Source: Protoeuglena noctilucae (lineage: Eukaryota). Taken from it: DNA of 64,000 nucleotides. The position numbers and the translations under genes were made by a program. The notes below the pieces were generated by a model. It was given only the letters and a program-made list of their open reading frames with translations, made no database searches and had not been told where the DNA came from. The stretch covers positions 558,001 to 622,000 of the forward strand of contig OY253682.1 of NCBI GenBank assembly GCA_958009085.1. Reading direction: 5' to 3'. Shown piece by piece: positions 7,323 to 30,800 of the stretch. Position 1 is the stretch's first letter, and each line of letters begins with the position of its first letter.

Positions 7323-10300
7323 ATGCTGGCGGGGATTCGCAGGATGTGCGCCGCCCTGCAGCTTCTCGCGCTGCTGGCCGCGGTCGCGCTCCCAGGGGCG
7401 GCAGTTGGAGGGACACCAGACCTGGCAGGGCCAGGGCTGAGGTGACGCGCCGCGGCCGGCGGGGCTTGACATCATAAACATCTGGGCCTCGCCTGGCACC
7501 CACCGCGCTCGTTCGCCCGCTCACAGGCCGCTTATGTATGAAACAACTCAAGAGGGAGCGGTGCGCTTCAATGCCACCGCCCCCTCGGTACCTCTGATCG
7601 AAGTCATGTCTGGTGAGCATCTTGGTGACGAGTTCGTGCGCCGCGATTCGCGCCACAGCCGGGGGGATTCCACCGCAACACCGCCTCCCGCCCCGACCCG
7701 CAGCACGCCGATCCCTCCTCGTCGCGGACTCCCGCCATGCGCCCATCATGAGCGGGATTCCGCGGCAGAGGTTCTGGATCCAGGACGCCGTGAGCCCGGG
7801 CGGCCGCCCCGGCAACTCGGCGAAGGAGTGGATGATGAACACGCTGCAGGTCCAGGACCGCGGCGACTACGTCAACCGCATCGACTGTCAGATCTGGGAC
7901 GAGCCGCAGGGCAACAACCCGCCCTCGACGTGGGCCACGGTCGCCAAGGCGAGTGCCGGCTGTGATGCGGCGCGGCGCGTGTGATGTGCCAGGCTTTCGA
8001 GCATTGGCTCCCCCGTCTCCGCTGCGGCGAGCGCTCGTCTTTTCACTATGGGATGCGACGCACGGGGGAGATGAGTTTCGCGCCGGGCAGGCTGGCGTGT
8101 GGATCAACGCGCTCGCCCTCCGCTGCGCCCGCAGGACCAGCTGTTCTTCAACTGCCCGACCAACCAGCCCTTCCTCGTCCAGAGCCGTACGGGCAGCCAA
8201 ATCGACGTGAGCACGACCCTGTGCGGCACGTACATCACGGGCCACGGCACCAACACGCTCCTGGACAGCAGCGGCCTGAGCATCTACGGGATGCAGACCC
8301 TCATGCAGCAGCTGTGCTTCCGGACGGACGATGTCAATCCTAGTGAGTTGCAGCGTGCGATCGCGTTTTGTGCGCCGAGCCTGGCTCGCTGCCCTGCCCT
8401 GCGTGTGTGCCCTGTGCCTGACGCGTTTGCGCAAACTGAGCACTGCCCGGCCCCTTCCCCGCCCCAGTCCGTGGCAAGCGTCGCGTGATCTACACGATGA
8501 CCAACTCGGACCAGTCCGGCAACAGCTACCAGGTCGACTTTTACCAGACCGTGACGGTCGTGGGGACGAACAACGTGCCCAGCATCTGCCCCTACAAGCC
8601 CGGCGATGGGCAGGCCTGCACCACCATGCAGAGCACGTTGCTCTACATCCAAGAGCCCGTGGCCCCCGCCAAGGCCACCCTCTTGCCCGTCATGCCGGAC
8701 ATCCATTGAGTCGTCATTGCTCAGCCCATGCATGGCCGTCCCGTCCTTTGCAAGCATTCTATCTTGTCGAACGCTCGCCCCTGATGTCCCTCCTCCGCAG
8801 CATCAACACGCTCGAGTCGCCCACCTCGACGTTCACCACAGTGACGCTCACCATCCCGACGGCGCCCCTCACCACCGCCCGCCTGGATGGCGACTCGCTG
8901 GCCATCGGTGAGCGACCGCTGTCGCCCCCTGGCTAGCGCTAGGATCGTGTCAGGGTCTCTTGGCAGCGCCAGCGTGCCAGCCTGTCTGTTTCTGACCAAT
9001 AGTCGTACTGTCGGCCACCGCAGACCCGACGCGCATCCCAACCGGCTTCGCCTACACGTACGGCGCGTGCCCGGGGTCCACCATCTGCGTGACGACCGTG
9101 GCGAACGTGGATAACATCCAGGTCACCATCACCGGCTACCCCGACGCCGACTCGCTGGCCGCAATCCTCCGTGCCTTCGTGTACAAGGTGGGCGCCTGAT
9201 CCCTGCGCACTGCACCATGATGCACCCCCCCGCTGGCCGGTGGCAACAAACCTCCCCATGCTGCCTCTATCTCACGTGGCTACCTGTCGTTGTGCGTTGC
9301 AGAAAATCGACAACCTGCCCACGTCCCCCGTCGGTGGCATCGACATCTCGGTCGTGCCGCGGGTCGTCACGGTCCAGATCACGGACAGCCGGCCGGCTCA
9401 GAACGAGCAGTCCGACGGCGGCAGCAACGGCCGCCAGGACGGCGGCAGCGGCGGGGGCGGGAGCGGCGGTGGTGGCGGCGGCACGGGCGGTACAGCCGGT
9501 GGGACGACCCCCACGCCCAAGCCCACCTCGACGCCCAAGCCCGCCGGCGGGTCGGAGCGCACGGGCGGGGGCAAGTGGCACCGCCGCCGCCTCATGGACT
9601 CCGGCAGCTTCGACTGGGGCTTCTACTACGGCGGGTGCAGCTCTGGCGGCACGACGTCGGGGAGCACCAACACGAACGACGGTGGCAGCGGGGGAGGGTC
9701 CACCACGAGCCAATACAACAACTGCAGCACCTCCGGGTACGGCGGCTACAACGACGGTGGCTCCGGCGGCGGGGGTGGCGGTGGTGGGGGCTCTGGTGGC
9801 GGGGGCGGGGGCGGTGGCTCTGGCGGTGGAGGCTGGGGCGGCTCCCGTCGGTCGCTGATGGACAGCTACGGCGGCTACGGTGGCTACGGCAGCTACGGTG
9901 GTAGCTACGATCCGTACAGCTGCTGGGGGAGCAACGGCGGCACCAGCTCCGGGTCGACCAACCAGAATGACGGCGGCAGCGGTGGCGGCGGTGGCAGCAG
10001 CTACTGCTCCTACCCCCAGTACAGTGGCAACGACGGTGGCTGGTCCATCAACACTGGCGATGGCGGCTCGGGTGGCGGCTCTTACAACACCAGAGACGGT
10101 GGCTCGGGTGGCTCGGGTGGCGGCTCGTACTATGGCCGCGGCTCAGGCGGCGGGAACAACCAGGACGGCAGCTCGGGGGGCGGTTCCCAGTGCAACCTGG
10201 TGCAGTACGACGACCACGAGTACAACGACGGCAGCTTCACGTGCGGCACCCCGCAGCCGCGCACGTGCGAGCCCGTGGTGGTCACGATCAACATCAACCG

Positions 10301-13300
10301 CCGGCCGGTCGTGGGCGGCCTCGTCAACGCGACCTTCTACGAGGATACGGTCGTGGGTGCCATCCCCAACGGCACCATCACGCCGCCGCCCTTCACGGGC
10401 GCGCTGCTCTTTGACGCCGACGGCGACGCGCTCGCGCGCGCCGAGGTGACGGTGTCCAGCGCGTCGCCGGACCACCACCTGTCGTGCGCCCAGTTCTTGT
10501 GCACGACGCAGTCGACGTCGTTCAAGGGCACGACGCCCAAGTCGACCAAGATGACCGGGCAGTACTACAACCTCTGGGAGGTCACGACCCCGGGGGCCAC
10601 GTCTGCCAACTGCCCCTACGCGAGCCCCTCGTGCACGGTCTGCGCCCCCGTGGCGTACCCGGCGGGCCTGTCGTGCGAGCCCGACGCGGCGACCACGGTC
10701 GACGGCGGCTACGGCGTCCCCGCCGCGAGGAAGCTCGTCTTCGTGTCGACGGGCGGCGACACGACCGCCAACTTCCAGGGGGCCCTCCGCACCATCTTCT
10801 ACGTCAACACGGGCGGCGACAACGTCAACCCTGCCGGCGCCGACGTGCTGGTGCAGCTGTGGGACGTGCGCCTCGACGGCGTGCCCGACGTCGACACTAA
10901 CAACGACGGCATCCCCGACCTCGACGTGGGCACCAACAGCCTGCCCGTGGTCAACACGGTGTCGTGCTACCAGACGTGCACGAGGCACAGCCCCCTGCTG
11001 CACATCTCGGTGGTGCCCTACAACAACCCGCCGGTCGTCGTCGTCATCCCCAACGCCGCCATCGTGTGGCAGGAGTCCGCGGACAACACCCCCGTCTACG
11101 TGGGCCTCATGTCCAACGAGACCACCTTCACCATCACGGACGTGGACAGCGGGGTCGCCACCGTGACGCTGGCGCTCTCCAGCGGTGGCACGGGCCGGCT
11201 GCAGTGCGGCAACGGCGCCACCAGCGCGGCCGCCGTGGCGGGTTTCACCTGCCAGGTCGCGGCGGGCGGCAAGAGCATCACGCTCTCGTGGCCGTCGGCG
11301 GGCGGCGGCTCGACGTCCGCGGCCGTGTCGGCCATCAGCCAGGTCTTTTACACGGACGACATCAACACGCCCGACGCGGGGTCCTACTCCGTCCTCGTGA
11401 CGGTCGTGGACGCGGCGCTGCAGGCGGGGCAGGTCAGCCCGACCTTCACGGTGGCCGTCACGGTTAACAGCTACAACGACACGCCGACCGTGACGGGAGC
11501 GCTCCTGTCGCCCTGGACGGAGCAGGCCTACCAAAGCGTGCCCTTCCCGCTCTTCCAGGGCCCCACGGGCACCGTCATCGCCGACGTGGACAGCTTCGAC
11601 CGCATCCACCACGTCGACGTCACGCTCGTGCCGCCCTCGGGCACCTCCACGACGTTCCCGGGGCACCTGATGTGCGGCGCGCTGCCCACGGCCATCGCCG
11701 AGAGCATCGTGATTGAGAATGGCGCCAAGACGGCCGCCCTGGGCTTCGCGCCCTCGACGTTCCGCGCCACAGTGGCCTCCTCCTCGTCCAACGGCGCCAC
11801 GCTCTTCTTCTGCGAGATGCTCGAGAACCCCACGGGCACCACGGGCTCGTGGACGGTCCCCACGGGCGCCACCTCGGCGCGCCGCCTCACCAAGCGCGTC
11901 AAGGCGGGCAAGGGGGCGACCGGAGCGTGGAACCGTGTCGACATGACGGCCGCGGAGGCCACGGCGTTCCTCCAGGCGTCCGTGTCCTACTTCAACGAGT
12001 CCAACCTGCCCCGGCCGGGCGCCTACTCGGTCACGGTGACCGTGGTGGACGACGGCGACACGGGCGCAGCACTGGGCAACTACCCCACGCCCATGACGGC
12101 CAACGTCTCGCTGCCCTTCACGGTGTCGAGCTTCGAGGACCCCCTGCAAGTCTGCATCCTCGGCATGTACTGCACGACCACGGACCTGGGCGCGGCCGCC
12201 TCGTGCGCCTGGCCCAACCTGGTCTGCACGGCGGCCGCGGACGTGGAGCCGAGCGCGGGGTGCAACTGCTACTCGGGCAGCAACTACACGACGCTGCAGC
12301 GGGTGCAGATGAACCCGCCCAACCCGGCCGTGTACCAGCCGACGTTCGTGCCGGGTCAGACAGGCGTGGTCCTGTTCCCCATCCAGAACGCGACCTGGGA
12401 GGGCGTCCTGGCCAACATCCCCCAGGCCAACCTCTACCTCATCAACCGGGAGTACCAGGACCAGAAGAACGTTACGCTAGGCACGGTCATCACGGCGGGC
12501 GACGTGGTGCCGAGCCACGACCTCCTGCGGTCGTGCACCGCCACCAACGGCACGTGCGCCACCATCCTGCCCGGGTCGTGGACGACGTACCTGACGGCGC
12601 CCCCGTCCTCCCGGGCGCTCTCCTTCACGTCCATCCCCAACCTGAGCAAGCTCGCCTACGGTTACGACAACACGGTCCCCGACGCCAGCAACCCGGCGGA
12701 CCAGGACCCGCGCGTGGTGCAGCTGCAGTTCCGCAAGAGCGACACGCAGACGGCCGAGAAGCGCGCGGAGGTGCGCCTGCAGGTGCTCTTCAAGCAGGTG
12801 CCGGCGATCATCATCGTCCCGACCGGGCCCAGCTCGCCCCCGACGCCCTCGTCGGCCTTCATCGAGGGCGACAACCCCTGGACGCCCGTCACGCTCGCTA
12901 CCGTCCTGGGCACCACCAACAAGACCTACACCAACTCCTTCCGCCTGAGCGTCCTCGACCGGGGCACGGGCTTCCAGAACGCGGTCAACTGCTCGCCCAC
13001 CCAGAGCGCCTGCTACTTCGGCCAGATCCAGCTCACGGTCAACCAGGCGGGGCAGGGCCTCCTGGTCTGCAACAGCACCGACGCACGCGTGGGGTGCACG
13101 TCGGTGTCCAGCAGCACAGTCCTTCTCTACTTCAAGACCTCCGTCTACGACTCGACCAACAAGATCACGCTCACGCTGGACCAGCAGGTGGCGCTCGTCA
13201 ACCAGGCCATCAACGACTTCGTGCTCTACTCCAACCGCGGCGACGACCCCAAGGCCGGGACGTCCAACTACACGGTCTCAATCTGGGACCTCGCGGGCGA

Positions 13301-16300
13301 CAAGGCGACCATCACGGTCAACTTCGACGTGGTGCCCGTCAACGACGTCCCCGTCATCGCCGTCACGAGCGCCCCGACGTACCTGGAGCAGTCGGACCCG
13401 ATCCCGATCTTCACGACGCCCACGGTCGCACTCAAGGACGGTGACCCAAGCACAGCCTCGGACATCACGCAGCCGGAGAACCGCCTCGTGCAGCTCAAGG
13501 TCACGCTGGCGGGAGGCGCCACGGGGCTCAGCTGCTCGGGCGCGACCGGCCAGGCCATGACGTGCGCCGTGTCGGCGGGCGGCAACGTGGTGACCCTCAC
13601 GTCCCCCATGCCCATCCTGCCGACGTCCGTCGTGGCCGCCATGGTGGCCCTGGTGCGCTACCAGAACACCTCGTGCGACGCGCTGCAGAGCGGGTCGGTC
13701 GGCGCGACGGTGGCGGTGACGGACGAGCTGGGCGCCACGGGCCAGTCGCCTATGACCATCACGCTCACGGGCATCTTCGACCCGCCCAAGCTGGCCAACA
13801 CGACCACGGTGACGGACACGGTCGGGGAGACGCAGTTCAACCCCAACGGCTACCTGCCCTTTGCCAGCGGGAGCGTCTTTGACGAGACCACAACCGTCGA
13901 CATTGAGTTCGGCCTGGGGTGCAGCCCCACGAGCCTGACGGACGGCTGCGACGCGTTCGACGGCGCCAAGGACGTCCTGCAGACGCTCGTCCTCTCCGTG
14001 GCTGCCGGCTACCCGCAGAGCGCGCTGTCATGCAACGGCCTCCCGGGCCCCGTGCAGCCGCCCCCGGGCACCACGGTGACCTGCCAGGCCACGGCCACGA
14101 GCGTGACGCTCAGTTACATCGGCACGGGCACCAACGACGTCCCGGACGTGTCCCTCGCGCTCAAGAGCCTCCTCTACACCAACACGGGCCTCTCGCTGTG
14201 CGGCGGCGGGCCCCTGGACGCCAACCAAGACACGGTGCTGCTGTCCGTGACGCTGACCGACACGGCCAACGAGTCGTGGTCGCTGGCCAACAAGTTCAGC
14301 CTGGGCGTCACCACGGTCAACTCGGCGCCCGTCGTCACCAACGCGACCTTCGTCGACAAGCACTTCCTGGAGCAGTACTCCGACAACGGTGCGGAGGACA
14401 ACCAGCACGTGCCCATGGCCATCTTCGCCATGGGCGAGGTCCGCGTGCGCGATGTGGACAGCTGCGACCTCCTCGCCTCCGTGAGCGTCCAGATGACGCC
14501 CCCGGCCACCACCGGCGACCTCGGCCTGCTCACGTGCGGCACGGCGGCCGAGGCCGTCTCGCCCCTCTACTTCGACGCGGCCACGGGCGCCCTCATGTCC
14601 CTCCCGGCCCTCGTGCCCGGCTCTCCCTACTTCCAGTGCTCCTTCTCGGGCACGGGCTCCAGCTCCCTCGCCACCGTGACCAAGGTCGTGTTCAAGTCGA
14701 CCGGCACCTTCGCGCCCACGACCATGACCGAGGCCGACGCGGCCGCGGCCCTCACGCTCGTGCGGTACGAGAACGAGTCGGATCACCCCGTGGCCGGGCA
14801 GTACACGGTTCAGGTCAAGGTGACGGACGCCGGGGACCATGGGAGCGACCACACGCCCCGCGACTCTGGGTGGGTGCCCATCACGCAGAACGGCTACTCG
14901 TTCGATGTCACGCCCTCCAACGACCCCCCCGTGTACTGCACCGACCCCGGGCCGTACTACCACAAGCACCCGCCGCACGTGACCCCGGCCGCGGCCTTCG
15001 CGCCCGTCACGTGCGCCAACGCGGCCAACTGCGGCTGCGTCAGCGCGGTCACGCTGACCGACTACTCGGACTTTGTCGAGGCTGGTGCGGGCGGCGTGGG
15101 TGCCAACTCGGCGCCTCTGCTGGTGGGGTCGGAGATCCCGTACCTCGACGACGCGGACCTGGTCGGTCCCTGGACCATGACAATCGTGCTGCTGTGCAAC
15201 GGGCAGTGCCACCCCGGCGACACCATCTACTGGACGGACGGCACCACCCGCATCGACGGGACGGCCGTGAACGACACGCGGCGCGTGGTTCTGACGGCCA
15301 CGACAGTCGACGTGGCACGCACGCTCCTCCAGCAGCTGGTCTACTACAGCACCGACGACCACCCCAGGGCGGGCTACCGCGACGTGCTGGTGACGGTCGC
15401 GGACCCCCTGAACGGCACCTGCACGCTGTCGTCCAAGATCCAGATCACGCCCACCAACGACACGCCCCAGTGGAACGGCCGGTACGACTGCTTCGCGGGC
15501 GGCAACAACGCCGTCAACCTGACGCTCAAGTCCACCAGCACCTTCTCCATCTACGGCGGATCGGCGCTGCAGTCCTTCCTGGCCGTCAACCTCGCGCCGG
15601 CGCTGGGGTCGTGCACGGTGGTCAACGTGGCGGTGCAGGCCACCATCACCCACCCGCTCGTGTCCGACCTGGCCGTCAACCTCCGCGCCCCCAAGGGTCA
15701 GTCCGCCAAGCTCCAGGCCGGCCTGCCCCCCGTGGCGTGGTCCAGCGTGGCGGTCAAGTACCAGGACGGCGGCCCGGCCGCGCCCACCACGGCGCTGAGC
15801 AGCACGAGCGTCGTCATGGCGCCCCTGACTCCCCTGGCCACGACGTTCGCGGGGATCGACCCCACGGGCATCTGGACGCTGGAATTGGACGACTCGGAGG
15901 CGGGGCAGACGACGAGCTCCGTTGGCACGCTCAACGGATGGGGCGTGGTCTTTAGCCTCTCCTGCTCGGCGCCCAACACGACGTCGCCCTGCCAAGACTA
16001 CACGGCGCAGTACACGGAGAAGGACGTCGTGACCCCCGGCCCCGACCGAGGCGTCTCCTTCACGCGCCTCCTCGGGTCGTACCCCACGTACGTGCAGGAT
16101 GACAGTGCGCTGGCGGCCGGCCTCAAGATCACCATCCAGGGCACCGCCGCCTCGACCGACTTCATGTACGACATGCTCACGTGCGGCACGACCGTGTACC
16201 ACGGGACCGCCAACTGCGCCCAGGGGTCCGCCTGGGACGTCAACCGCTACCTGACGCCCTTCGACGGCATCGCGTGCGGCCAGGCGGCGCTCCGGGACGC

Positions 16301-19300: not shown

Positions 19301-22300
19301 GGGCCACCTCCTATGCCCGGCCACGACGGTGGCGCAGGTCGGGTGCGCGCTGATCGACGATTTCACGCTCCGCTTCTACTTTACCGACGTGGCCTTCACC
19401 AACGGGGTCCTGACGCCCGCCATGGCGCAGCAGGAGGCGCTCATCGGCCAGGCCCTGAACGACTACGTGGTTTACTCCAACCGCGGCGACGACCCCACCG
19501 CCGGCACGAGCAAGTTCACCGTCACGCTGTGGGATGACGGCGACCAGATCGACGCCCCCGCGAGCACGACCCTGCCGGTGCCATTCCAGGTCGTTCCTGT
19601 GAACGACGTCCCCGTCATTGTCACCACCAGCGCGCCAACGTATCTGGAGCAAGAGGATCCCATCGCGGTCTTCGTTCCGGGTACCACGAGCCTCAAGGAC
19701 GGTGACTCGAGCACCGACGCCGACGTGACCAAGCCCGAGAACCGCCTGGTGCAGCTGGACGTGGCGCTGCCGGCCGGCAAGACGGGCCTCAGCTGCGCGG
19801 GCGTGTCGCTCGGCCCGCTGACGTGCCAGGTGCTGAACAGCGGCAACGCCGTGCGGCTGCACACGGCGACGGGCACGGCCACGCCGACCCAGGTCGTGGC
19901 GGCCATGGAGGGCCTGGTTCTGTACCAGAGCCCCGATGGCGATGCGCAGCAGAGCGGGACGCTGTCGGTCGCCGTGACCGTCACGGACGACATGGGCGCC
20001 ACGGGGCAGTCGTCGTGCGCCATCACGCTCGTGGGCATCTTCGACCCCCCGCGGCTGTCGTACACGACCGAGGTGCAGCGCACCCTCGCGGAGCCCCAGT
20101 TCAAGAACGGCTACGAGCTCTTCGCGTCCGGCAACATCCTGGACGCCAGCACGTTCGTCCCCATCGTCTGGGGCCTGGGGTGCATCTCGGAGAGCCTCGT
20201 GGACGGCTGCGACGCCTGCGACGGCGCGCACGACGTGATGCGCACGCTCACGCTGACCGTGACGGGCAACGCCTTCGACCAGCACCGCCTCTACTGCAAC
20301 ACGCTCCCGGCGATGGGCCAGCAGGGCCCCAACGACCTCGTCACGTGCGACACGGCGGCCACCGGCGCCGGCGTCACGCTCACCTACCTGGGCGGCGGCG
20401 GCGACGGCCGCGCCGCCATGACGGCCGCCATCACCAACGTGCTGTACGTCAACACGGGCAGCATGCTGTGCGGCAGCTGCCTCTACTCCCTCGCCAACGG
20501 CAGCTTCGAGAGCTGGAACAGCGCCTTCCCGGCCGCCTTCAGCGAGTGGACGATCGAGAGCTCGATGAAGGTCTTCCGCCTGTGCAGCTCGTCCGCCGCC
20601 AACTACTACACCACCCCGGCCTTCGTCGTCCCCACGGGTGGCAACCCCTGCATGGGCATGAACTACTTTGCGTCCCTGCTTGGGTCCAACCAGTCCACCA
20701 CGCCTCTCCCCGACGGCGCGGCGGCGCTGGACCTTCCCTTCGACGGCAGCGGCGGCAAGGCGACCGTCATGAGCAGCGTCTACGCCCCGATGACCGACAA
20801 GGTCCTGCGCCTGCACTTCCACATCAACGCGTCGCTGCAGGTGGGCGCCCAGGCGCGCCATTTCAGCATAATGCTGCAGGACGTCGACGGCAACGAGCTG
20901 CAGCGCACGCTCGTCCTGTCGGCGGAGGCGGGCCAGTCGACCACGGTCGTGGACGCGAATGGCAACTCCGCCTTCATCGGCTATGAGGTCCCGCTGGCTG
21001 CCGTCACGGCGCCCTTCCGCATCGTAATCGAGTCGTCCGTGCCCGAGGCCTTCACGGGACCGGGAGAGCTCATCGTCGACAACCTCGTCTTCGCCGCGCC
21101 CAACGACCCATGGTCCCCCAACCTCGGCGTCGTGGCGCCCTCCCCGTCCCCGTCGGGCCTCTCGTGCGTGCGGACGGCGCCCCTGGCCACCCTGCCCCAG
21201 ACGTACCTGAACGCTCGCACCGCCGAGCTCGCCACCCTCGCCTCCGGGCGCCGGCTGCGCGAGTACGAGGACTGGGTGCTGCCGGTGGGCCACCCCGCGC
21301 GCCGCCGGCTGATGGCGGCCCACCCGCAGATCTGCCAGCTGTCGGCCCGCAACGCCAACGCGGACGGCTTCGACCTGCAGATATCGATGACGGACACGGC
21401 CAACGAGACGTGGACCAACAAGTCGTTCCACGTGCAGATCGCCACCGTCAACGACGCTCCCGTCGTGCGCCCCACCAACGCGGGCTTCCACGTCAAGCAC
21501 TGGGTCGAGTTCGACCCCGTCAAGGCCGTCCCCGTCAACCGCGGCGTCCCCTTCGCCTTCCTCCTCCAGGACGAGATCCGCATCACCGACGTCGACAGCT
21601 GCGACCGCATCCAACGCGTGGACGTGTCCCTGGCGGTGCCGGCCAATGCCACGGCCGACGTCGGCGCCCTCATGTGCGGCAGCGACGCCACGGCCACCTC
21701 GCCGGTGCTCTATAACCCCGCCACGATGGCGCCCCTGCCAGCCACCTCGGTGGCCACGGGCGGCACAGTCCTCATGTGCACCTTCTCCGGCCAGGGCAGC
21801 GCCTCGACGGTCACCTTCCTCAAGCGCACGAGCAACGGGCAGCCCGACATGACCACCTGGCCGGCGGTGGACATGACGCAGGACGAGGCCAACAGCGCCG
21901 TGCTGCTGCTGCGCTACTTCAACGCGTCGACCAACCCCCAGGGCGGCCAGTACACGGTCACGATCAAGGTCACGGACGACGGTGACCACGGGTCCGACAC
22001 GGCGCCCAAGTCGACGAGCCTGGCCCTGGTCGAGTCCACCACGCTCAACTTCACGTTCGACGTGACACCCTACAACGACCCGCCCCGCTGCGGCACCCCG
22101 CCGGCCGCCTGCCCGCCGGACATCTACCTGTCCGACAACGTCGTGTTCGTCGAGATGGGACCGGACGCGAGCGGCACGGACCCGTGCCCCACGTGCACCA
22201 ACGCGGCTCGCAACGTGTTCATGGTCGACGCCGCCACTGAGTCTGCGCCGCTCCTCGTCAAGTCCACGCTCCCCACCGTGACGCTGCTCAACCCCGCGAC

Positions 22301-25300
22301 CTTCTCCCTCGACGTGACGTTCACGGGCCCCACGAGCGCGGGCGATCCGAACGACAGCCTCGTCTACACATCGGCGAGCGGCGTCGCGCAGACCGGCACG
22401 TCCCTGCACTTCGTCAACCAGCAGATGTCTGACATCATGGGCGTCATCCTGCCCGGCATCCAGCTCCGCAATCCCTCGGACACCCCGCTGGGCGGACTGC
22501 GCGAGTTCACAGCCGTCATCACGGGCACGACGTCCGTCATCACCATCCACGGCAAGATCCTCGTCGTCCCCACCAACGACATCCCCAAGTGGGTCGCGCA
22601 GGCGCCCCCGGTGCAGTACATTGAGGCCACCTCGGCCGGCGCCCCCGGGACGTGCGCGGCGGGGTCCGGCCCCGACCGTAGCGTGACCTTCATGCCCGTC
22701 TGGCCCAACCTCAAGGTCGCCGACGACTCCAAGCTCCTCGACCGCGTCGTCTTCACCATCGCCGCCACCACCTCCCCCACGGGCTCGCCCTGGGACCTCC
22801 TGGCCTGCTCCCCGCCGGGCGCGGCGCCCACGCTCGGGTCTTGCGTGCCCTCCCACTGGGTGGCCGTGTCCAACGGCGCCTCGCCGCCCGTCTCCGGGTA
22901 CCTCGCCCCCAGCGACTACATGGCGTGCGTGCAGAACCTCATCTACCCCAGTGCCAACCCCGCCTCGGGTCGGTCCGAGGTGGTGACGTACCTCGACACG
23001 GCGCAGGCCTTCAAGTGCTCGTTCGGCAAGGACGGCACGCCCACGCTCGTGGTTTCCAAGGCGGACGGGTCCGGCATGACGCTGGCGGAGCTCAACGCCC
23101 AGATGGGCGGCGTGAGCTTCAGCATTTGGTACGACCACCCGGCCGCCGCCACGCGCACGATCAACGTGACCGTGTTCGACCGCGCTGACCCGGACGCCGT
23201 GGGCTGCAAGGCGCCCTCGGCCGCGGGCAACGTGTGCGACCTGAAGAAGGACGGGTGCTCGTGGGCCACCCCTCCGCCCGACCTGTCGTGCGCCTGGCAG
23301 GTGCCCACGACGTGCCTGGCCTGCCCCCAGAAGAGCGCCACGATGCCCGTCACCGTCTCCATCACGCCCAAGAACGACCCGCCCGCCGTGTCGACGTGCG
23401 CGACGCTGAACGTCCTCGAGAACCCCACGGCGGACCCCTCTCCTGGGAACCTCTTCTGCCCCGGCACGACCATCACCGACTACGACGACACGGACACGTC
23501 CGCGGATGGCGTGTCGTCCATCAGCGTCGTCTTCACCAGCGGGTACCAGCCCACCGAGGACCTCCTTTCAGTGGCCGACGGCACGTGCGGGGTGCTGGGC
23601 AACTCGACGGCGTGCACGGTCACGTGCGCGATGGCCGCGAGCGACACGGGCGACGCGGCGCACTTCGCGAGCGCCACCCAGTGCTTCCGCCTGACCAACG
23701 ACGCTAGCGGCCCCACTCGTGTCTATGCCGCCTGGTCTGCCGGCCCCGGCACGCTGTACATCCGCGCGGGCGGCGTCATGTCCGCCGCCACTGCCGCCGT
23801 GGCCATGCAGCGAGTACTGTACGTCAACACGGCACCCTACACGCCCAAGACGAACCCGCGCCTGCTGACGGCGACGGTGGTCGACGGCCCCGGCGCCTGC
23901 ACCCAGGTGCAGATCACGGCGACCATCACCCCCGAGAACGACCCGCCGCACCTGACGAACCTCCCCGACACGGTGCAGTTCTACGAGTCTGGGCTGTGGT
24001 CGACCGAGTACACGCCCGACATGCTTAACCACGACACGGCCGTGGGCCAGGGGGCGTACTACTGGGACCCCGACTCGTCCTACAGCATGTTCGCGCTCGT
24101 GACCATCGCGCTCAACTACTCGGGGTACCCCACACGGACCGAGGACAACCTGGGATGCACGACGGGGCTCATGAACGAGTACGTTCAGAGCCTGCAGTGT
24201 CAGGTGGCGGCGCTGTACGGCTACGCCATGCCCGGGTGCCCCGCGCTCACGGGCCCGGCGGTGTGCCAGGGCAGCCAGCTGCCCGACCACCCCTGCGACA
24301 ACTCATGCGTCGACGCGGCTTCGACCGCCACGTGCAAGTCCCTCAAGCAGAGCCTGCTGGACACGACGGCCTACTACGAGTCTCTCGGGTCCATCGAGGG
24401 CCTCTCGCTCCGCTGCGACTTCGCCCCGGTCACCGGCGCCCTCTACATCTGCTGGCCGCGCGACCCCAACACGCTCTGCTACAAGGAGGTGCCCTGCGCG
24501 GACGGCTCCGGCGCCATCTGCGACGCCACCAAGCTCCCGCCCATTGAGACATACGCCATCCCGATCCCCGTGATGAACGCCGTGCTCCAGACCATCTATT
24601 ACGAAAACACGAACGACAACCCCAACCCGACCCCGCGCCGGCTCAGCTACACGGTGTGGGACTGCTACGACGACGTGGACTCGGGCATGACCGTCACGGC
24701 GCCCGGCGGCAGCGCCATCACCCCGCCGCCCGGCAGCACGGCCACCCTGCCGCCCGGGGAGCTCTTCACGCCGGCCCCCGGCACGACGGTGCACCCGCGC
24801 ATGTGCAAGTGCACAGAGAGCGACCCTCAGAAGTGCTTCGACACGGCGTTGGACGCGCAGCTGAACCCCACGATCATCATCCACCGCACCAACGACCGCC
24901 CGGGCCTCCTCGGCCAGGGTTCGGGCGTGGTGGTGTACGAGGGCCCGGACCCGACGTCCGGCCCCAGCTTCACCAAGGTGCTCACGGACGTGAAGGTAGT
25001 CATGATCGACTCCCTCTACATCCAGCGGGCCTCCATCGAGGTGCAGCAAGTCACGGCGGGCGAGGACGAGCTGGCCTGTTTGGATACTACAGGCACGCCG
25101 TACGTGTTCTGGTGCGTCAGCACCGACCCCGCCGGGGCCCCGCACATGGTGCCCTCGACCCAAGTGACCCTCACGAACGCGCCGGTCCCGTCGTCCTGCA
25201 ACGTGCTCGCCCTCCCCATCGCGTGCGGCACGGCCGCCGGCTGCAACGTCTCCCAGGTCCCTCCCGCCTGCTACAGCATCTTCACCGCCGTGGGGTGCGC

Positions 25301-28300
25301 CACGCAGGTGTCGGCCTCGACGCAGCTGGCGCCCATCCCCGTCTCCTGCATCTGGTCGAAGGACGCAGCCTCGGGCCGGTACGCCCTGATCATCGAGCGC
25401 GTGGGCGTCGTCGACACGCTCGCCCCGGGCGCCACCACGGCCGACGGCGAGGCCGCGGGCCCCCACGGCCTGCGCGGCCCCGAGGCCACCATGCTCGTCC
25501 AGTCGGTCGGCTACCGGAACGACAACCCGCACCACGCCACGTGCTGCGCCACGTGCCCCGCTACGGGCCCCGGCTCCCAGCGCCGCCTCCAGGTTACGGT
25601 CTACGACCAGGTGCCCATTGACGTGTCGATATCCAACACCCCGGACCCCACCCCGAACGCCACGTGGAACCCCACGGTCACGGAGCTGGCGCCGTGGTTC
25701 CTCGGCCGCGCGAGCACGCCACTCAACCGCGACCTCGCGTTCGAAAACTACAACAACAAGCCGGTGCTGACGGTGCCGGGCACGGGCGGGACGTCCGACG
25801 GGTACGGCTCGGCGGCCCTGCCGATCCAGCGCAGCTGGGTGGAGGTGAACGGGCCGTCCGTGTACCTGGGCAACCTGCCCAGCGAGCAGTACAACGGCTT
25901 CGTGTACCTGCTGCCCAACCTGCAGATGTCCGACGACAGCACGTGGTTCCAGTTCGCGTCGTTCGAGATCACCGGCAACTTTCACGGCCGCCAGATCGAC
26001 CAGACGACATGCAACCTCCAGTGCCCCAACGGCAACTGCGGCTGCTCGGCCTTTTCGGGCCCAGTCGAGGACCTCCTCTTCTGCGACCCGACCGCCGCGT
26101 CGCTGGCGCCGTGGAAGGGCAGCCTGCCGCCCAACGTGCAGTGCCAGTGGCAGTTCGACGAGACGACCAACACGGGCCGCCCGCGCCTGGTCATCCAGGG
26201 CTTCAACGGGGCCTACGTGAAGCCCAGCGACCTGCTCGCCGCCGTCCAGTCGGTGGGGTACAAGAACACGATGGCCTTCCCGCACTGGGGCGACAGCGAG
26301 CTCCGCGCCATCACCTTCACGGTCGCCGACTCGGACCCGCTCCAGGCGGACCCTAAGGGAGAGGAAGAGCAGTGCGCCTGGCAGCCCACGGGCTCGGCCT
26401 CGAGCTCGCTGTACCTGACGGTGCACGTGCAGCCGCACCTGGACGACGTGCTGTTCTTCGAGAACATGCAGTGGAGCATGTGCACGGCCCCCGACTGCAT
26501 CCAGACGCGCAACCCCATCTGCCAGGACCACCAGTGGAGCTGGGGCCCGGTGATGAGCCTGGACGCGAGCGGGAAGTCGACCACGACGCCGGTGACCATG
26601 ATGGTGGGCGGGAAGCCCCAGGTGCTGGAGACGGTAGTCTTCGTGCCCCAGTTCAAGCCGGACGGCACGCCCTACGTGCAGCCGGCCACCTTCTGCGGCC
26701 CCATCCCGACCATGTCGCAGTCGTGCCCCTTCGACCAGTGCCCGCGCTTTCAGTGGGTCACGTCGGCATGGAGTCCCTGCAGCGCCACGTGCAACCCCCA
26801 GGGCACGACCCTTACGGGCACCCGCACGCGCTCGGGCTTCTGCAAGGCCGTGGGCCTGCCCTTCTACGTTCCTCCTTCCCAGGCGGGCTGCTCCCAGTGG
26901 ACGACCGCGGACATGAACAGCACGGTGCTGCAGGTCATCACGGGCACGGTGTCCAAGTGCACCTGCATGGCCTCGGACGTGCCCGCGCTCGTGTCCCAGT
27001 GCACCCCCACCACCTCCTGCCAGGCGTACCAGATCGAGAGCGGCCAGTGGTCCTCGTGCTCGGCCTACTGCGGCTCGGGATCCAAGTACCGCGTGGGCGC
27101 GTGCTACCACTACGCCTCGACCGGCAAGACCCAGGCCTCCTGGGACCAGTGCTTCGCGGCGAGCACGTCGGGCACCGGCATGACGTCCACGGACCCCTCC
27201 AACCCCTGGAAGTGCCCGGACTTCAACGTGGGCAGCAAGTGCACCCTCACGAGTGGGGGCGTCACGCGCCAGTGCCAGGTGTCGTCGTCCAACGGCTTCC
27301 TCACCTGCGTCGAGAAGGCCGCGTGCAACACGGGCGCCTGCCCCAGCTACTTCTGGGACTTCCAGGCGTGCGACAACTGCGACGCGCAGGGGTGGGGCCC
27401 GTGCCAGGCGGCGCCGGGCGCGGCGGCGTGCTCGGACGGCCAGCGCACCCGCACGGCGCAGTGCATGCTCAGCACGGCCAACTCGGTCGCGCCCACCACG
27501 GACCTCGACTGCGAGAACAACGGCATCCCGCGGCCGATCGAGTCGCAGTTCTGCGTGGCCCAGTGCGGCTGCTCGGCCCCCATCGCCCACGACCCCTCGG
27601 GCATCTTCCTCAATGGCACCTGCTCCGGCGACCAGCTCACCTGCGACCCCGGCTACCACCTGGAGAGCGTTTCGACCTCCTCGGGCACCGCCTGGCAGTG
27701 CGCCCAGGACCCTGCCTGCCCCAAGGATCAGTTCTACTTCTACGGACCCATGGTCGGGAGCTCCAGCCCAGCCTCCTGGATGTGCTGCGCGGGCATCGAC
27801 AAGTCCGGGGCCTGCTGCGGCGTCGGGATCTACGCCGACAAGGTGAGAAGGGTAGCTTAGCAGCCCCTTTGCTTTTGCATGTCTTATGTTGTCATGTTGG
27901 GGAGGCTTGGATGTCACGCGATGCTGAGCGTGCAGCGTTGCATAGGCCACGTTCCGCTGTTGGCGACGTGCACAGCAACCGACCCCCCCGCCATCTGCAC
28001 GCAGGACCGCAACTGCTGCCCGGCGGGCAACCTGGTGGACGGCTGCGGCGACTGCTACGACCCCACCCAGTCCTCCGGCGGCGTGTGGTCCATCGTGGAC
28101 GGCCAGTGCTGTGTCACGGGCGAGATGGGCGCCGACGGCTCGTGCTGCCCGGCCGGGTCGCCCGTCGACGACTGCGGCGTGTGCGGCGGCAACAACGAGT
28201 GCAACGTGGTGTCCACCGTCACCACCTACCTCTCCACGGACAGCACCACGTCGACGCCCACCCCGACCCCCGTCCCCCGCCGTGGCCTGGCCGCCTCCTC

Positions 28301-29985
28301 CACCGACTGGTCCTGCTGGGCCATCCAGGTGCGCCATGCGCCTGGGTGATACCCTCACAGCAGCCATCACTCCCTCACAACAGCCAACACCCACTCACAG
28401 CAGCGGTCACAGCGGACTCATCTCACTTGTATTCTGTGTATTACTCTCGGCGTTGTCGTCCTTATCCCACGCGCACCCCACCCTCACCCCACCGTCTGCA
28501 ACTCCCATCTACGCCTGCAGCTCTTCCTGGAGGCCATCTGCGGGGAGCGCCTGGGCCTGGACTGGTCCCAGCGCTGCCAAGTCACGGCCATCTCCGCGGA
28601 GTCCACGCAGAGCATCCGCCGCCTCCTGCAGTCGCCCACGGGGCAGTCGGCCAATGTCGTCGTCACCTTCTCGGTGAGAGGCTGAGCACGTCATATGTCG
28701 ATGCGATGGAACCGGGTCCCTGCTGCGCTGAGTTGTTTCAACTACCGCAGCGTGCGCCATAGGCAGCAAGCCCCCCAAAAGCCCTCTCCGGCATGCGCCT
28801 TGCGCTGGTCCCCTCACCGCCCCGCCCCTCCTGCACCCACGCACGCAGGTCCTGGCCCCGACGTCGTACGGCGACAAGTCGGTCTCCATCCAGGACGTGC
28901 AGACGGCCCTGAACACCAACTCCGGCACCTCGTCGGTCATCGTGAGCAGCGTCCAGAACACAACGTCCTCGGGCGTTTGCGGCAACTTCCGATGCGAGAA
29001 CGGCGAGAACAACACAACCTGCCCCCACGACTGCGTGGTCAAGGCCACCTCCCAGGTCTGCCCCTCGCCCACCACGGGCGTCGGGAGCACCCAGATGGCC
29101 TGCGGCGGCAACGGTGTCTGCTCCTACGGCGCCTGCGTGTGCAACCAGGGGTACCGCGGCCCCGCCTGCGACTACTGCGACACCGCGGCCGGGTTCCAGG
29201 CCTACGGCTCCGTGTGCATCGGAGGCGTCGTCACCAACTCCACGCCCGCGCCCACCGCCGGGACCGCCGGCACTGGCAGCGGCTCCACAGGGTCCGGCAC
29301 GTCGACCGGCACGGGCACGGGCGCAAAGGCACCCTCGGGCAGCACCGCCCCGGCGCCCTCCGGCTCCGGCAGCACCCTCCCCGGCGCGGGGTCCTCCTCG
29401 ACCTGGCCCCCGCCCTCGTCTGGCACGCCCAGCACGCCCTCGGCTGCGCCAGGCTCGCCCCCGACGTCCCCTGGCGCCTCCGGGAACTTCGGGCAGAGGT
29501 GAGACGCTTTGTGTTTGGTGCTGATATGATGCGGAATGCTCTGGCAGCCCTGCCCGTGATTGCGAGCCTCGGCTGGGCACAAGCGCTCTGGTGCTGAACC
29601 CTCGCAAACCTCCTCCCCCCGCAGCCCCAGCTCGTCGCCGCCGGGCAGCGTCTCGGGAGCGGGCGCCAGCACCGCCACGATGGCCCTCATGGCGGTGGGC
29701 TTCATGGCGGCGGGCGCGGGCATCGTGCTCTTCGCCGGCCTGGTCGTCCGCGTTGTCAAGCGCCGCAAGGAGATGGCGCAGGTCGGCGTGGCACCCATCG
29801 TGCTCAACCCGGCCCCGATCGTCCCCAAGCCGGTGGCCGTGGCCGCCGCACCTGCCTCGGCCGCGTCGACGGCAGAGCCCGCCGGGTCGCGACCCATGTC
29901 GGCCGTCCGCACCAACGCCGTCACACCCATTGACGCCCCCGCGGAGGACACGGGGTCCGTCGACGACGTCGTGGTGCACTCGTGA
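7323..29985 (+). CDS. Giant (~7,064 aa) type I transmembrane adhesin-like protein: signal peptide, ~26 cadherin/Ig-like repeats, P-domain, CBM-like domain, TSP1 repeats, Cys-rich repeats, EGF-like domain, TM helix, short tail
   Basis: Exons: 7323-7441, 7527-7612, 7704-7948, 8135-8342, 8468-8705, 8801-8907, 9024-9187, 9303-27842, 28005-28328, 28521-28673, 28849-29498, 29625-29985. They sum to 21,195 nt with all phases compatible; the 8705/8801 junction needs a TT donor. The N-terminus MLAGIRRMCAALQLLALLAAVALPGAAVG is signal-peptide-like. TM MALMAVGFMAAGAGIVLFAGLVVRVV is followed by KRRK. Confidence 0.9.
9405..10190 (+). repeat. Gly/Ser/Tyr-rich low-complexity coding segment with ~10 xxDGG(S) units and two RRxLMDS motifs
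   Basis: Translation shows QSDGGS, RQDGGS, TNDGGS, YNDGGS, QNDGGS, GNDGGW, TGDGGS, TRDGGS and NQDGSS, separated by poly-Gly (GGC/GGT runs). Confidence 0.9.
11016..23930 (+). repeat. Internal tandem duplication of a 10-domain block (copy 1 ~11016-17201, copy 2 ~17202-23930)
   Basis: Colinear paired motifs: FEDPLQVCIL/FEDPLVLCIL; FIEGDNPWTPVTLATVLG/FIEGDTPWTPVTLATVLG; YSNRGDDPKAGTS/YSNRGDDPTAGTS; VVPVNDVPVIAVTSAPTYLEQ/VVPVNDVPVIVTTSAPTYLEQ; GIFDPPKL/GIFDPPRL; DVDSCD/DVDSCD; GDHGSD/GDHGSD; GPDRGVSF/GPDRSVTF. Confidence 0.95.
15510..15960 (+). other. Proprotein-convertase P-domain-like module inside the giant protein
   Basis: ITHPLVSDLAVNLRAPKG ... PLATTFAGIDPTGIWTLELDD ... VGTLNGWGVVFS matches the H..xDL.I.L.xP.G / F.G...G.WTL.V.D / GTL..W pattern of P-domains. 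Confidence 0.8.
26750..27570 (+). repeat. Three thrombospondin type-1-like repeats
   Basis: WVTSAWSPCSATC...RTRSGFC; SGQWSSCSAYCGSGSKYRVGAC; GWGPC...CSDGQRTRTAQC. Confidence 0.85.
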
Positions 29986-30800
29986 CGCCCGCCCGGGCCA
30001 GCACCTTTGAATAGGCTCTGCATAGACCAATAGAACCCACTTCCATGTCTACCATGCATGCGCGCCCGGCTTGGCACCTCGTGCCTTCCGGGCCCGCACT
30101 TTCCGTCCCTGTGCAGCTCGACCCGTGACTGTGTTCCCCATGACCATCCTCACACCTTTTTGGGGGCAGTTGAGCCCAGTCAGTCCTGCTGGTGCAGCTC
30201 TGCACAGCGCCGGGCTGCACGCGCCCACCAGCCCGTTGCTTTGTCATGTTTGGAGGAGGAGGGGCGGCTGGAGCCCCAAGGCAACCTCACCCGCGGCGGT
30301 GGCTGTTTTTAGGTCGGGCACGTGGCGACCCCTCGTGCATCTCCCAGCTGCACCTGACCACCCCCGCTCTTTTGGGCGAGCGGGGGTGGTGGGCGCCGCA
30401 GGGCTCGAGTGGGCGTCTCGCCGGCTGCATGAGTTTGTTTTGTTGGCGTGGAGGAATGAGGCCGCGGTGGCCGGATGCTTTGTGTGCCGGCGCCTTCCCG
30501 ACCGCACACGGCGGGTGGGGGGAGGCTGAGGGGTGGAATTTGCTCTATCTGCATTGCGTGGCTGGATGCGCCGCGGTCGGACCCGGCTATGGCAGCACTC
30601 TGTTTCCCTCCGCTGCCGTTCTGTTGAATTCAATGCACAATGCAACACCATCATCTGACACTGACGTGCCTCTGGCACGGCGGAACAGCTCTGTTATGAT
30701 CCCCGCCCTGCGCTCGTGTCGCCAACGATCAGGCACGCCCTGCAGTGTTCCGGCCGAGGACCCCCCGGGCCGACTGAAACATTGAGCACCATTCCTGTCC

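Follow-up and report, generated by a model that had tools for sequence, protein, structure and literature searches.

The stretch of DNA considered here (the window: 64,000 nucleotides of the Protoeuglena noctilucae assembly GCA_958009085.1, contig OY253682.1, positions 558,001 to 622,000 of the forward strand, with all coordinates below counted from its first letter) holds one gene on its plus strand, from 7323 to 29985. Its predicted product is a surface protein of extraordinary length, in which some 26 tandem units are followed by Cys-rich modules, a transmembrane (TM) helix and a short tail, and in which the units appear to be homologous to the repeats of giant bacterial adhesins. An earlier note on this DNA had described a complete 12-exon gene for a protein of about 7,000 residues. 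The observation is confirmed as real, with the qualification that the last five exons are proven by RNA, whereas the first seven are predicted and the junction between exons 5 and 6 has not been placed. The full model comes to 7,072 residues, with an X placed at that junction (Table 1), and the database entry for the locus is a prokaryote-style open reading frame (ORF) call of 6,000 residues.

Gene structure and transcription in the sea

Across 7323-29985 the GC content of the window is 0.67-0.70, and a plus-strand frame (9093..27860) stays open for 6,255 codons; because about 0.02 stops per codon would be expected at the local GC (an estimate from base composition), a frame of this length lies far beyond chance. 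GC at third codon positions (GC3) is 0.95 across the giant exon 8 (9303-27842), 0.90-0.95 in exons 3-8 and 0.92-0.98 in the four 3' exons, and is weak in exons 1 and 2. Ten public sequencing runs are listed with part or all of 20101-30100, six of them recorded as RNA, and in four marine metatranscriptome runs from one study (X1-X4) between 56 and 93% of the sampled words are present. Read contigs of the RNA runs X1, X2 and X3 and of a probable DNA run, X7, were mapped on 10101-30100. In all three RNA runs one contig carries the joints 27842/28005, 28328/28521, 28673/28849 and 29498/29625, corresponding to introns of 162, 192, 175 and 126 nt, each GT..AG. None of the four is seen in the X7 contigs on the same range, where the whole 20-kb stretch lies in one 89.7-kb contig with an even depth of ~66.

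In X1, a 10,948-nt contig shows no splice between 19036 and 27840 and continues across all four joints, which places the 3' exons on the same RNA as the giant exon. Other X1 contigs (11411-16643, 16622-17423, 17412-17931 and 18069-19020) have no internal joints, and since the X1 contigs are unspliced there, the giant exon is free of introns from 11.4 to 27.8 kb. All 30 X1 depth bins are covered, with two short gaps among the X1 pieces listed; the contigs of the three environmental RNA runs together span 11411-30100 nearly unbroken, at contig depths of 17-41. The spliced frame reads through the TM helix (29680-29757) and a 75-residue tail to the stop codon at 29983-29985. The RNA thus shows the structure of the gene from 11.4 kb to its 3' end and its expression in the sea, and it bears out the earlier claims of a single gene with a membrane anchor and a tail of about 75 residues.

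Upstream of the RNA-covered region, the signal peptide and exons 1-7 are predicted. The ATG at 7323 starts a hydrophobic, signal-like peptide, MLAGIRRMCAALQLLALLAAVALPGAAVGG, within the predicted first exon, and in-frame GT/GC..AG sites are available for six of the seven 5' introns. At the remaining junction an in-frame TGA (8707-8709) lies beyond exon 5 and no good donor fits, and an exact 30-nt exon 5 pattern finds no match in metagenome contigs. Further into the 5' model the unit profile described below matches model residues 149-257 at E 1e-4, marking what is probably the first, divergent unit. The low-complexity stretch at the start of the giant exon sits between the second and third units; RNA was mapped only from 10101, and an intron could still lie inside 9400-10229.

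A few further observations concern the same contigs and the opposite strand. In all three RNA runs contigs end loosely at 10225, 11971 and 14988, and further loose ends occur at 12210, 19153/19159 and elsewhere; they match no part of the window. Paralogues, contigs that are assembly chimeras, or alleles or strains that have diverged could account for them; upstream exons were considered as a source and rejected. A low-depth X7 contig (11.7 against ~66) skips 17492-17704, 213 nt or 71 codons, in frame and inside a unit, with only 21 nt on the shorter side of the contig, and this may reflect variation in length or an assembly error caused by the repeats. Two long antisense frames opposite the giant exon (19311-23567, minus strand, 1,418 residues; 24303-28394, minus strand, 1,363 residues) were taken for by-products of the coding-strand GC3 of 0.95 and not for genes.

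Table 1. Features of the gene and its predicted product, in window coordinates (aa, amino acids; CBM, carbohydrate-binding module)
Feature	Positions	Strand	Evidence
Exon 1 (predicted)	7323..7441	+	Start codon, signal-like peptide; GC3 0.74
Exon 2 (predicted, weak, uncertain)	7527..7612	+	In-frame GT..AG; GC3 0.57
Exon 3 (predicted, GC donor)	7704..7948	+	In frame; GC3 0.95
Exon 4 (predicted), part of first divergent unit, end ...LCFRTDDVNP	8135..8342	+	GC3 0.93
Exon 5 (predicted, 3' end approximate)	8468..~8706	+	GC3 0.92
Exon 6 (predicted, 5' end approximate)	~8802..8907	+	GC3 0.94
Exon 7 (predicted)	9003..9187	+	GC3 0.90
Giant exon 8, 18,540 nt: Gly-rich linker, 24 units, P-domain, CBM-like insert, TSP1-like modules	9303..27842	+	Open frame; 3' end fixed by RNA
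Gly/Ser/Tyr/Asn-rich low complexity, ~300 aa, two ~90-aa repeats each with RR[RS]LMDS	9400..10229	+	GC3 0.86
24 tandem beta-sandwich units (predicted), 151-459 aa, the largest with the insert	10500..26462	+	Unit split, alignment, profile
Super-repeat copy 1, giant-frame aa ~638-2700	11004..17189	+	Self-BLAST
Unit modelled by AlphaFold2, giant-frame aa 1422-1574	13356..13814	+	Structure model
Proprotein-convertase-type P-domain, copy 1 only	15624..15950	+	Pfam PF01483, E 7e-9
Super-repeat copy 2, giant-frame aa ~2700-4940	17190..23912	+	Self-BLAST
~250-aa all-beta module in split unit of copy 2, CBM-like as a lead only	20568..21340	+	Comparison with copy 1 unit
Three TSP1-like Cys-rich modules, W..W..CS..C type	27000..27700	+	Sub-threshold Pfam
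Exon 9, Cys-rich CCPAG...C(G)xCGG repeats	28005..28328	+	RNA joints, three runs
Exon 10	28521..28673	+	RNA joints
Exon 11, EGF domain (29098-29172), then Ser/Thr/Gly/Pro-rich stalk	28849..29498	+	RNA joints
Exon 12, TM helix, KRRK, 75-aa tail, stop	29625..29985	+	RNA joint

Repeat units of the stalk and their bacterial relatives

The bulk of the giant exon is a stalk of tandem units, which were split by hand at N-D-x-P or F-E-D-P boundaries. With 24 units in the giant exon and two divergent ones in the 5' exons, the count of about 26 given in the earlier note holds, and when 15 of the units are made into a profile, 24 of the 27 stretches that it matches on the full model reach E < 0.01, nine of them from units outside the training set. 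Across the 15 aligned units D28 never varies, C70, Y102 and D123 are kept in at least 90%, and 12 of the 15 show, by eye, an E near residue 11; the consensus reads ...E...D-x-D-S...V...L...G-x-L-x-C...C...A-A...Y-x-N...P..G...T-V-T-V-x-D...V-T-P-x-N-D-P-P. By eye, an N-D-x-P or F-(E/D)-D-P boundary motif ends 23 of the 24 giant-exon units; a regular expression caught 19, and in the four that it missed F-(E/D)-D-P lay just before the 14-residue window. The two strings first quoted as examples of the repeat, ILKRITYDNPSNTPSGLQRIATVTTFDD and VLQTIYYENTNDNPNPTPRRLSYTVWD, are found in the translation. Cys makes up 3.3% of the 7,072-residue model, with 2-16 residues in each giant-exon unit and thus at least two in all 24, and the model holds 54 N-x-S/T sequons, mostly in units.

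The stalk has a higher order of its own. In a self-BLAST, residues ~638-2130 of the giant frame pair with ~2700-4500 in collinear blocks at 30-56% identity, and residues 2316-2690 pair with 4526-4934, so that on this comparison the stalk from 11004 to 23912 is a super-repeat of about 2,070 residues, duplicated once. Copy 1 alone has the P-domain, whose absence from copy 2 is read from the self-BLAST block coordinates, and copy 2 alone has the all-beta insert; from this it would follow that modules were gained or lost after the duplication.

The earlier note had expected the units to fold as beta-sandwiches, and the AlphaFold2 model of one unit supports this (predicted local distance difference test score, pLDDT, 77; predicted template modelling score, pTM, 0.72). 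The model shows an Ig-like beta-sandwich of seven strands, with one helix immediately before the Y-x-N motif. Against the PDB, the best Foldseek matches (E 8e-4 to 1e-2) are the B4GALNT1 N-domain, Gram-positive pilins, MSCRAMM adhesins, PKD domains, cohesins and an integrin leg domain. A search independent of Foldseek gives B4GALNT1 at Z 9.0 (root-mean-square deviation, rmsd, 6.2) and YcnI at Z 8.6, followed by many matches at Z 6-7.5, including cohesins, pilins, the colH PKD domain, a CDHR3 cadherin, a CSPG4 repeat and an Aeromonas RTX adhesin (9cse). The last three each score Z 6.3, and the CDHR3 match (rmsd 3.0 over 99 aligned residues) is no better than those of many unrelated sandwiches. 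On the calibration of this search, such scores point to an Ig-like beta-sandwich and to no specific family.

Relatives of the unit emerge in abundance once it is searched as a profile. Run with no word filter against 1.84 billion representatives, the 15-unit profile reaches 5,151 proteins with E <= 1e-3, of which 1,718 stay within E <= 1e-10 and 267 within E <= 1e-30; its top match (E 8e-177) is a protein of 7,041 residues with 43 matched stretches, and relatives reach up to 44. The top 150 are overwhelmingly bacteria-like, with N-termini of the M-F-N-L-R-K-L-E-x-R-I-V-L-D type and C-termini of RTX type; HemolysinCabind is matched by 3 of 10 scanned and a type IX secretion system (T9SS) sorting tail by 2 of 16. 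They also carry DUF4347, Cadherin, Cadherin_3/4/5, Big_9, VWA and PA14, and in one of them, P0101, a P-domain occurs together with the same repeats. Among those with a name, P0005 is a hypothetical protein of an Oculatella cyanobacterium, and P0040 comes from a Magnetococcales metagenome-assembled genome. Of the top 150 proteins, 114 contain unit matches that extend over 130 or more of the 161 profile positions. There are 492 such matches, with a median length of 130 residues, and the best bacterial ones score 40-50 bits, the E-values being those for a set of 150 proteins. The bacterial unit motif, for example ...Y-T-E-G...I-T-D-x-D-S...A-T-V-x-L...D-x-L-x-F...T-G-x-A-T-x-A-x-Y-Q-x-A-L-R-x-I-T-Y-x-N-T-S-D-x-P...R-T-V-x-V-T-V-x-D-G...T-I-x-V-x-P-V-N-D-A-P, follows the same order as the algal one. 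When the algal alignment is set against 60 bacterial units, hhalign returns a probability of 99.0% (E 7e-18, 137 columns), a comparison that is partly circular, as it was the algal profile that had selected those bacterial units. For three algal units compared with the Atlas, every one of the nearest clusters is bacterial, among them one of RapA2 cadherin-like domains (0.95). A BLAST of the whole protein against the 150 representatives finds P0074 only, the bacterial matches being visible at profile level alone.

The link to giant bacterial adhesins that the earlier note proposed is therefore borne out by profile search: homology of the algal units to the ~130-residue cadherin-like extender repeats of such adhesins is supported, and by their sequence profiles the units do belong to a large, mostly bacterial repeat family that Pfam covers poorly. 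Among giant bacterial surface adhesins, RTX substrates of the type I secretion system (T1SS) such as LapA, SiiE and MpIBP represent the functional class, and P0005, P0040 and others are the actual sequence relatives; there the unit likewise occurs in dozens of tandem copies with a common motif order (Y-x-E, D-x-D-S, L-x-f, Y-x-x-A-L-x-x-I-x-Y-x-N-x-S-x-x-P, R-x-V-x-x-x-V-x-D, V-x-x-V-N-D-x-P) and with extra binding modules in or between units. The algal protein differs from them in being without RTX nonapeptides, a T1SS or T9SS signal or an N-terminal retention module, and has in their stead a predicted signal peptide, TSP1-like and EGF modules and a TM anchor. At 150-320 residues the algal units exceed the ~130 of the bacterial ones, and they carry 2-16 Cys each, N-glycan sequons and added loops. 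The added Cys had been part of the original observation, and they are borne out, at 3.3% in the alga against less than 1% in 148 of the top 150 matches. A Pfam search finds no match to HemolysinCabind on the algal protein, which, judged on these features, at most works like an RTX adhesin extender and is not a member of an RTX/T1SS system.

Known domain models recognise little of this. In a Pfam scan of three 2,000-residue chunks at E <= 0.01 only the P-domain and a weak TSP1 appear, and no cadherin; unit by unit, the best matches (Big_13 at 0.0035, Big_9 at 0.073, PKD at 0.14) each occur in one of 15 units and none is significant, and NCBIfam tandem-95 reaches 22.6 bits against a cut-off of 90. 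The unit profile, searched against PDB sequences, matches with its last ~35 positions only (~125-160), a strand-loop-strand of the form Y-x-V-x-V-T-D...V-x-V-x-x-V-N-D, found in the KIAA0319L PKD domain (E 0.003), in collagenases and in protocadherins, FAT4 and cadherin-23 (E 0.013 to ~1). FAT, cadherin-23 and the protocadherins, giant cadherins of metazoans and choanoflagellates, are TM-anchored rods of tandem beta-sandwiches, as the algal protein is proposed to be, and their last two strands and N-D-x-P linker match; the algal protein differs from these giant cadherins in giving no PF00028 match, in the middle of the unit (L-x-C, helix, Y-x-N) and in having no catenin-binding tail. The CSPG repeats of CSPG4/NG2 and FRAS1/FREM are also cadherin-like sandwiches with, as in the algal unit, a Y-x-H/N motif before the last strands; the Cadherin_3 model, carried by the bacterial relatives P0019, P0118 and P0061, gives no match on the algal protein.

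The resemblance to the calsyntenin C-terminal domain that had been suggested survives in part. CLSTN_C (PF19699) is matched by 9 of the 13 bacteria-like relatives scanned (P0005, P0007, P0019, P0031, P0040, P0070, P0118, P0061 and P0135) at whole-protein E of 1e-39 to 1e-7, each the sum of weak stretches of which none passes singly, whereas the algal protein gives no match, in whole chunks or in units. These matches suggest that an unmodelled bacterial repeat family of ~130 residues overlaps the animal CLSTN_C model, and the calsyntenin link of the algal protein would then be transitive and weak, real but indirect. Calsyntenin is a type I membrane protein with a cadherin-type ectodomain, as the algal protein is predicted to be, and shares a motif likeness (L-x-x-I-x-Y-x-N...P...R). 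It has about 1,000 residues, with two cadherin domains and an LNS domain. Among algae, the sexual agglutinins and FMG-1B of Chlamydomonas are very large, glycosylated, rod-like surface proteins used for adhesion, with sequences that are hydroxyproline-rich or otherwise not known to be related.

Among the top 150 the sole clearly eukaryote-like protein is P0074 (2,997 residues, 2.9% Cys), whose cluster has six members on metagenome contigs of up to 330 kb and no Pfam matches; it shares 29% identity with the algal protein over 1,892 residues, and the unit order is common to both. Word-index searches with residues 450-5400 returned only the locus's own ORF call; such searches require shared 5-mers and are weak evidence of absence. 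A unit tree was drawn from 60 bacterial units, each taken from a different protein, and 27 eukaryotic ones, of which this protein supplied 15 and P0074 and P0157 six each. It splits, with support of 0.85, into the 27 eukaryotic units plus one bacterial unit on one side and 59 bacterial units on the other, with two label changes against 17-23 in shuffles; units of the two eukaryotes are intermingled according to unit type, with neighbouring types kept adjacent. The tree is quick, short-domain and unrooted, built with a profile biased to algal units, and shows no donor. Its pattern fits one old origin of the eukaryotic units followed by duplication, and speaks against recent transfer or contamination.

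Modules between and beyond the units

The P-domain in copy 1 scores 36.1 bits against a cut-off of 21 and covers profile positions 3-85 of 86. The Pfam scan of the giant frame, in the same three chunks, detects no subtilisin catalytic domain. The second module, the insert of copy 2, interrupts its unit in the loop that leads from the Y-x-N-T-G...C motif to the last strands, and an Atlas lead (CBM_4_9/DUF642 at 0.90, with 136-144 shared features) makes it a candidate carbohydrate binder.

At the C-terminal end the TSP1/EGF/TM anchor of the original description needs qualifying in one of its three elements. The EGF domain lies above its cut-off (EGF_Teneurin, 35.7 bits against 24.3, E 9e-9; EGF_2 falls just short, at 21.9 against 22.1) and the TM helix, MALMAVGFMAAGAGIVLFAGLVVRVV in exon 12, lies in the RNA-supported frame, whereas TSP1 stays below its threshold (TSP1_ADAMTS, 21.0 bits against 23.8, E 4e-4, three stretches; TSP_1, 17.3 against 21.6), with the W..W..CS..C pattern visible in the translation. 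Exon 9 has no Pfam match. A type I topology is predicted from the TM helix and tail in the RNA-supported frame together with the signal peptide of the predicted first exon.

Function, origin and genomic setting

Taken together, these parts would make up a type I membrane glycoprotein of ~7,070 residues, encoded by one nuclear gene of a marine green alga. From its N-terminus it would consist of a signal peptide, two divergent units, a Gly-rich linker and 24 units, arranged as two super-repeats of ~2,070 residues plus extras, with a P-domain and, in a split unit, a CBM-like module; three TSP1-like and other Cys-rich modules, an EGF domain, a Ser/Thr-rich stalk, the TM helix and the 75-residue cytoplasmic tail would follow. 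On balance, we think it probable that the protein is a Ca2+-stiffened surface rod presenting lectin-like modules for adhesion. The tandem sandwiches would serve as an extender rod and, a typical sandwich unit being 4-5 nm long, some 26 of them would give it a length of the order of 100 nm. Ca2+ from seawater, bound where units meet, would hold the rod straight, with putative ligands in the E at about residue 11, the D-x-D at about 28-30, the T/V-x-D that precedes the last strand and the linker N-D-x-P; by analogy, these conserved acidic and Asn positions appear to match the Ca2+ sites between cadherin or RTX-extender domains. The rod would thereby hold its two lectin-like modules and its tip off the cell, where glycans on other cells, on particles or on the alga's own coat could be bound. 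The added Cys and N-x-S/T sequons would fit passage through the endoplasmic reticulum and Golgi. There is precedent for the principle in bacteria: a passage of PMC7493085 describes RTX adhesin extender repeats stiffened by Ca2+ in their linkers, and one in PMC12153261 attributes Ca2+-stiffened extension to Bap- and RTX-type adhesins as well.

Several points weigh against this reading. Ca2+ binding, rod shape, ligands and adhesion are all inferred. No cadherin, Big or CLSTN_C model of Pfam or NCBIfam reaches its cut-off on the algal protein, and for that reason the family link rests on our own unit profile, with the circularity of the hhalign comparison already mentioned. The structure model was built from a shallow alignment of 15 paralogues and represents a single unit, and its structural matches are middling, most of them at Z 6-8, possibly reflecting only a common arrangement. 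The insert has no Pfam match at E <= 1, and its single-sequence AlphaFold2 model (pLDDT 43) is unusable, too poor for a fold search. Secretion rests on the predicted first exon and on extracellular-type features (Cys-rich modules, EGF, TM); the 5' model was built from sequence alone, RNA mapping having started at 10101, and of ~50 in-frame GT/GC..AG pairs enumerated for the exon 5/6 junction none is convincing. On the side of the RNA, X1, X2 and X3 all come from a single study, X1 and X2 from the same sample, and the loose ends of their contigs continue for up to 255 nt in sequence absent from the whole window.

The same parts could belong to a structural or templating protein of the alga's own coat (scales, hairs, wall or mucilage) that binds the alga's own polysaccharides, and this we regard as unlikely. 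Rod, P-domain, CBM-like lead, EGF and TSP1-like modules and TM anchor fit it equally well, and in a portion of PMC12153261 bacterial cadherin-like domains are cited as carbohydrate-binding modules, with RapA2 a Ca2+-binding lectin for the bacterium's own exopolysaccharide. The RNA contig depth of 17-41 shows that the gene is expressed, without ranking that expression. Narrow literature searching found no homology to a described scale or wall protein, and the present data do not separate self from non-self ligands.

A role as receptor or mechanosensor, in which the ectodomain would pass ligand or shear to the 75-residue tail after the manner of calsyntenin, Notch or adhesion receptors, is more improbable still. 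It would draw on the presence of the TM helix and tail, on the calsyntenin-like type I architecture and the CLSTN_C matches of the units' bacterial relatives, and on a motif, RR[RS]LM, at which the protein might be cleaved. The motif occurs three times (10560-10574, 10824-10838 and 22278-22292; model residues 491, 579 and 4397) in a protein with 2.7% Arg, a number reached in 0 of 2,000 shuffles; an R-x-x-L or dibasic consensus is typical of processing sites, and these may be sites of proteolytic processing. However, two of the three lie in the duplicated, Gly-rich low-complexity segment and are not independent, the third being at the end of the CBM-like insert; Pfam finds no GAIN, SEA or other autoproteolytic domain in exons 9-11; and the tail is Ala/Pro-rich with no domain recognised by eye, no separate domain search having been made on it.

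That the locus is an artefact (more than one gene, a faulty assembly, or algal DNA fused to contaminating bacterial sequence), as its bacterial nearest repeat relatives, its 5' exons outside the RNA-mapped range and a database entry amounting to a prokaryote-style 6,000-residue ORF call might suggest, is highly improbable and largely refuted by the 10,948-nt RNA contig from 19036 across all four junctions, the single 89.7-kb X7 contig with its even depth of ~66 over 20 kb, the Cys-rich units with their near-exclusive eukaryotic group in the tree (support 0.85), the uniform GC3 of 0.95 and the eukaryotic flanking genes.

The history of the protein invites a further proposal, which is speculative and rather doubtful as a whole: that a bacterial extender repeat was taken up long ago by one green-algal lineage and rebuilt to suit eukaryotic secretion with disulfides, N-glycans and a TSP1-like/EGF/TM anchor into a ~100-nm rod that holds or selects bacteria, particles or mates. 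The lectin-type modules in split repeats may likewise have been taken from bacterial adhesins. The unit order shared with P0074 and the grouping in the tree suggest a family that is old and conserved in marine picoeukaryotes, as opposed to one recently transferred, and the same repeat family may underlie the C-terminal region of animal calsyntenins. Were the proposal true, the algal rod would mirror the adhesins by which bacteria hold on to algae. Searching open-access literature with a few terms brought up neither an account of an algal protein like this one nor one of calsyntenin-like repeats in bacterial adhesins, which is a weak negative. The protein's components and working principle have been described before; what appears not to have been is their combination, the organism that has it and the way in which the repeat is adapted to a eukaryote.

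The interest of such a protein lies in the cells that would carry it. Picoplanktonic green algae are major primary producers, and their molecular contact with bacteria, viruses, particles and mates is poorly understood. The protein would be among the largest of such a cell, and a rod of ~100 nm would amount to a sizeable share of a micrometre-scale cell diameter, rod length and cell size both being inferred. It extends the giant-adhesin repeat family of bacteria to eukaryotes, in a disulfide-rich form with N-glycan sequons, and would offer both a concrete candidate for studies of adhesion in the phycosphere and a bridge to the uncharacterised C-terminal region of calsyntenins. Should it prove to be only a coat protein, it would still be useful as a marker and would show that genes of this kind lie hidden behind prokaryote-style ORF calls.

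The word "algal", finally, is owed to the neighbourhood of the gene. The description of the protein as algal is supported by the adjacent PPDK gene (4644-6375, plus strand), which encodes pyruvate phosphate dikinase and whose best named relatives, none of them close, share 57-63% identity and belong to land plants and to the green algae (Ostreobium, Pleodorina, Tetraselmis, Pyramimonas, Ostreococcus), the best match overall being at 72%, and a green-lineage origin of the locus is supported from this one neighbour. The other flanking ORFs are eukaryotic as well: they encode ribosomal uL5, JmjC/cupin, LRR and Josephin/UIM/UBX proteins, with ORFs at 40302-41171 (minus strand), 53274-54056 (plus), 58047-59756 (minus) and 60492-61718 (plus).

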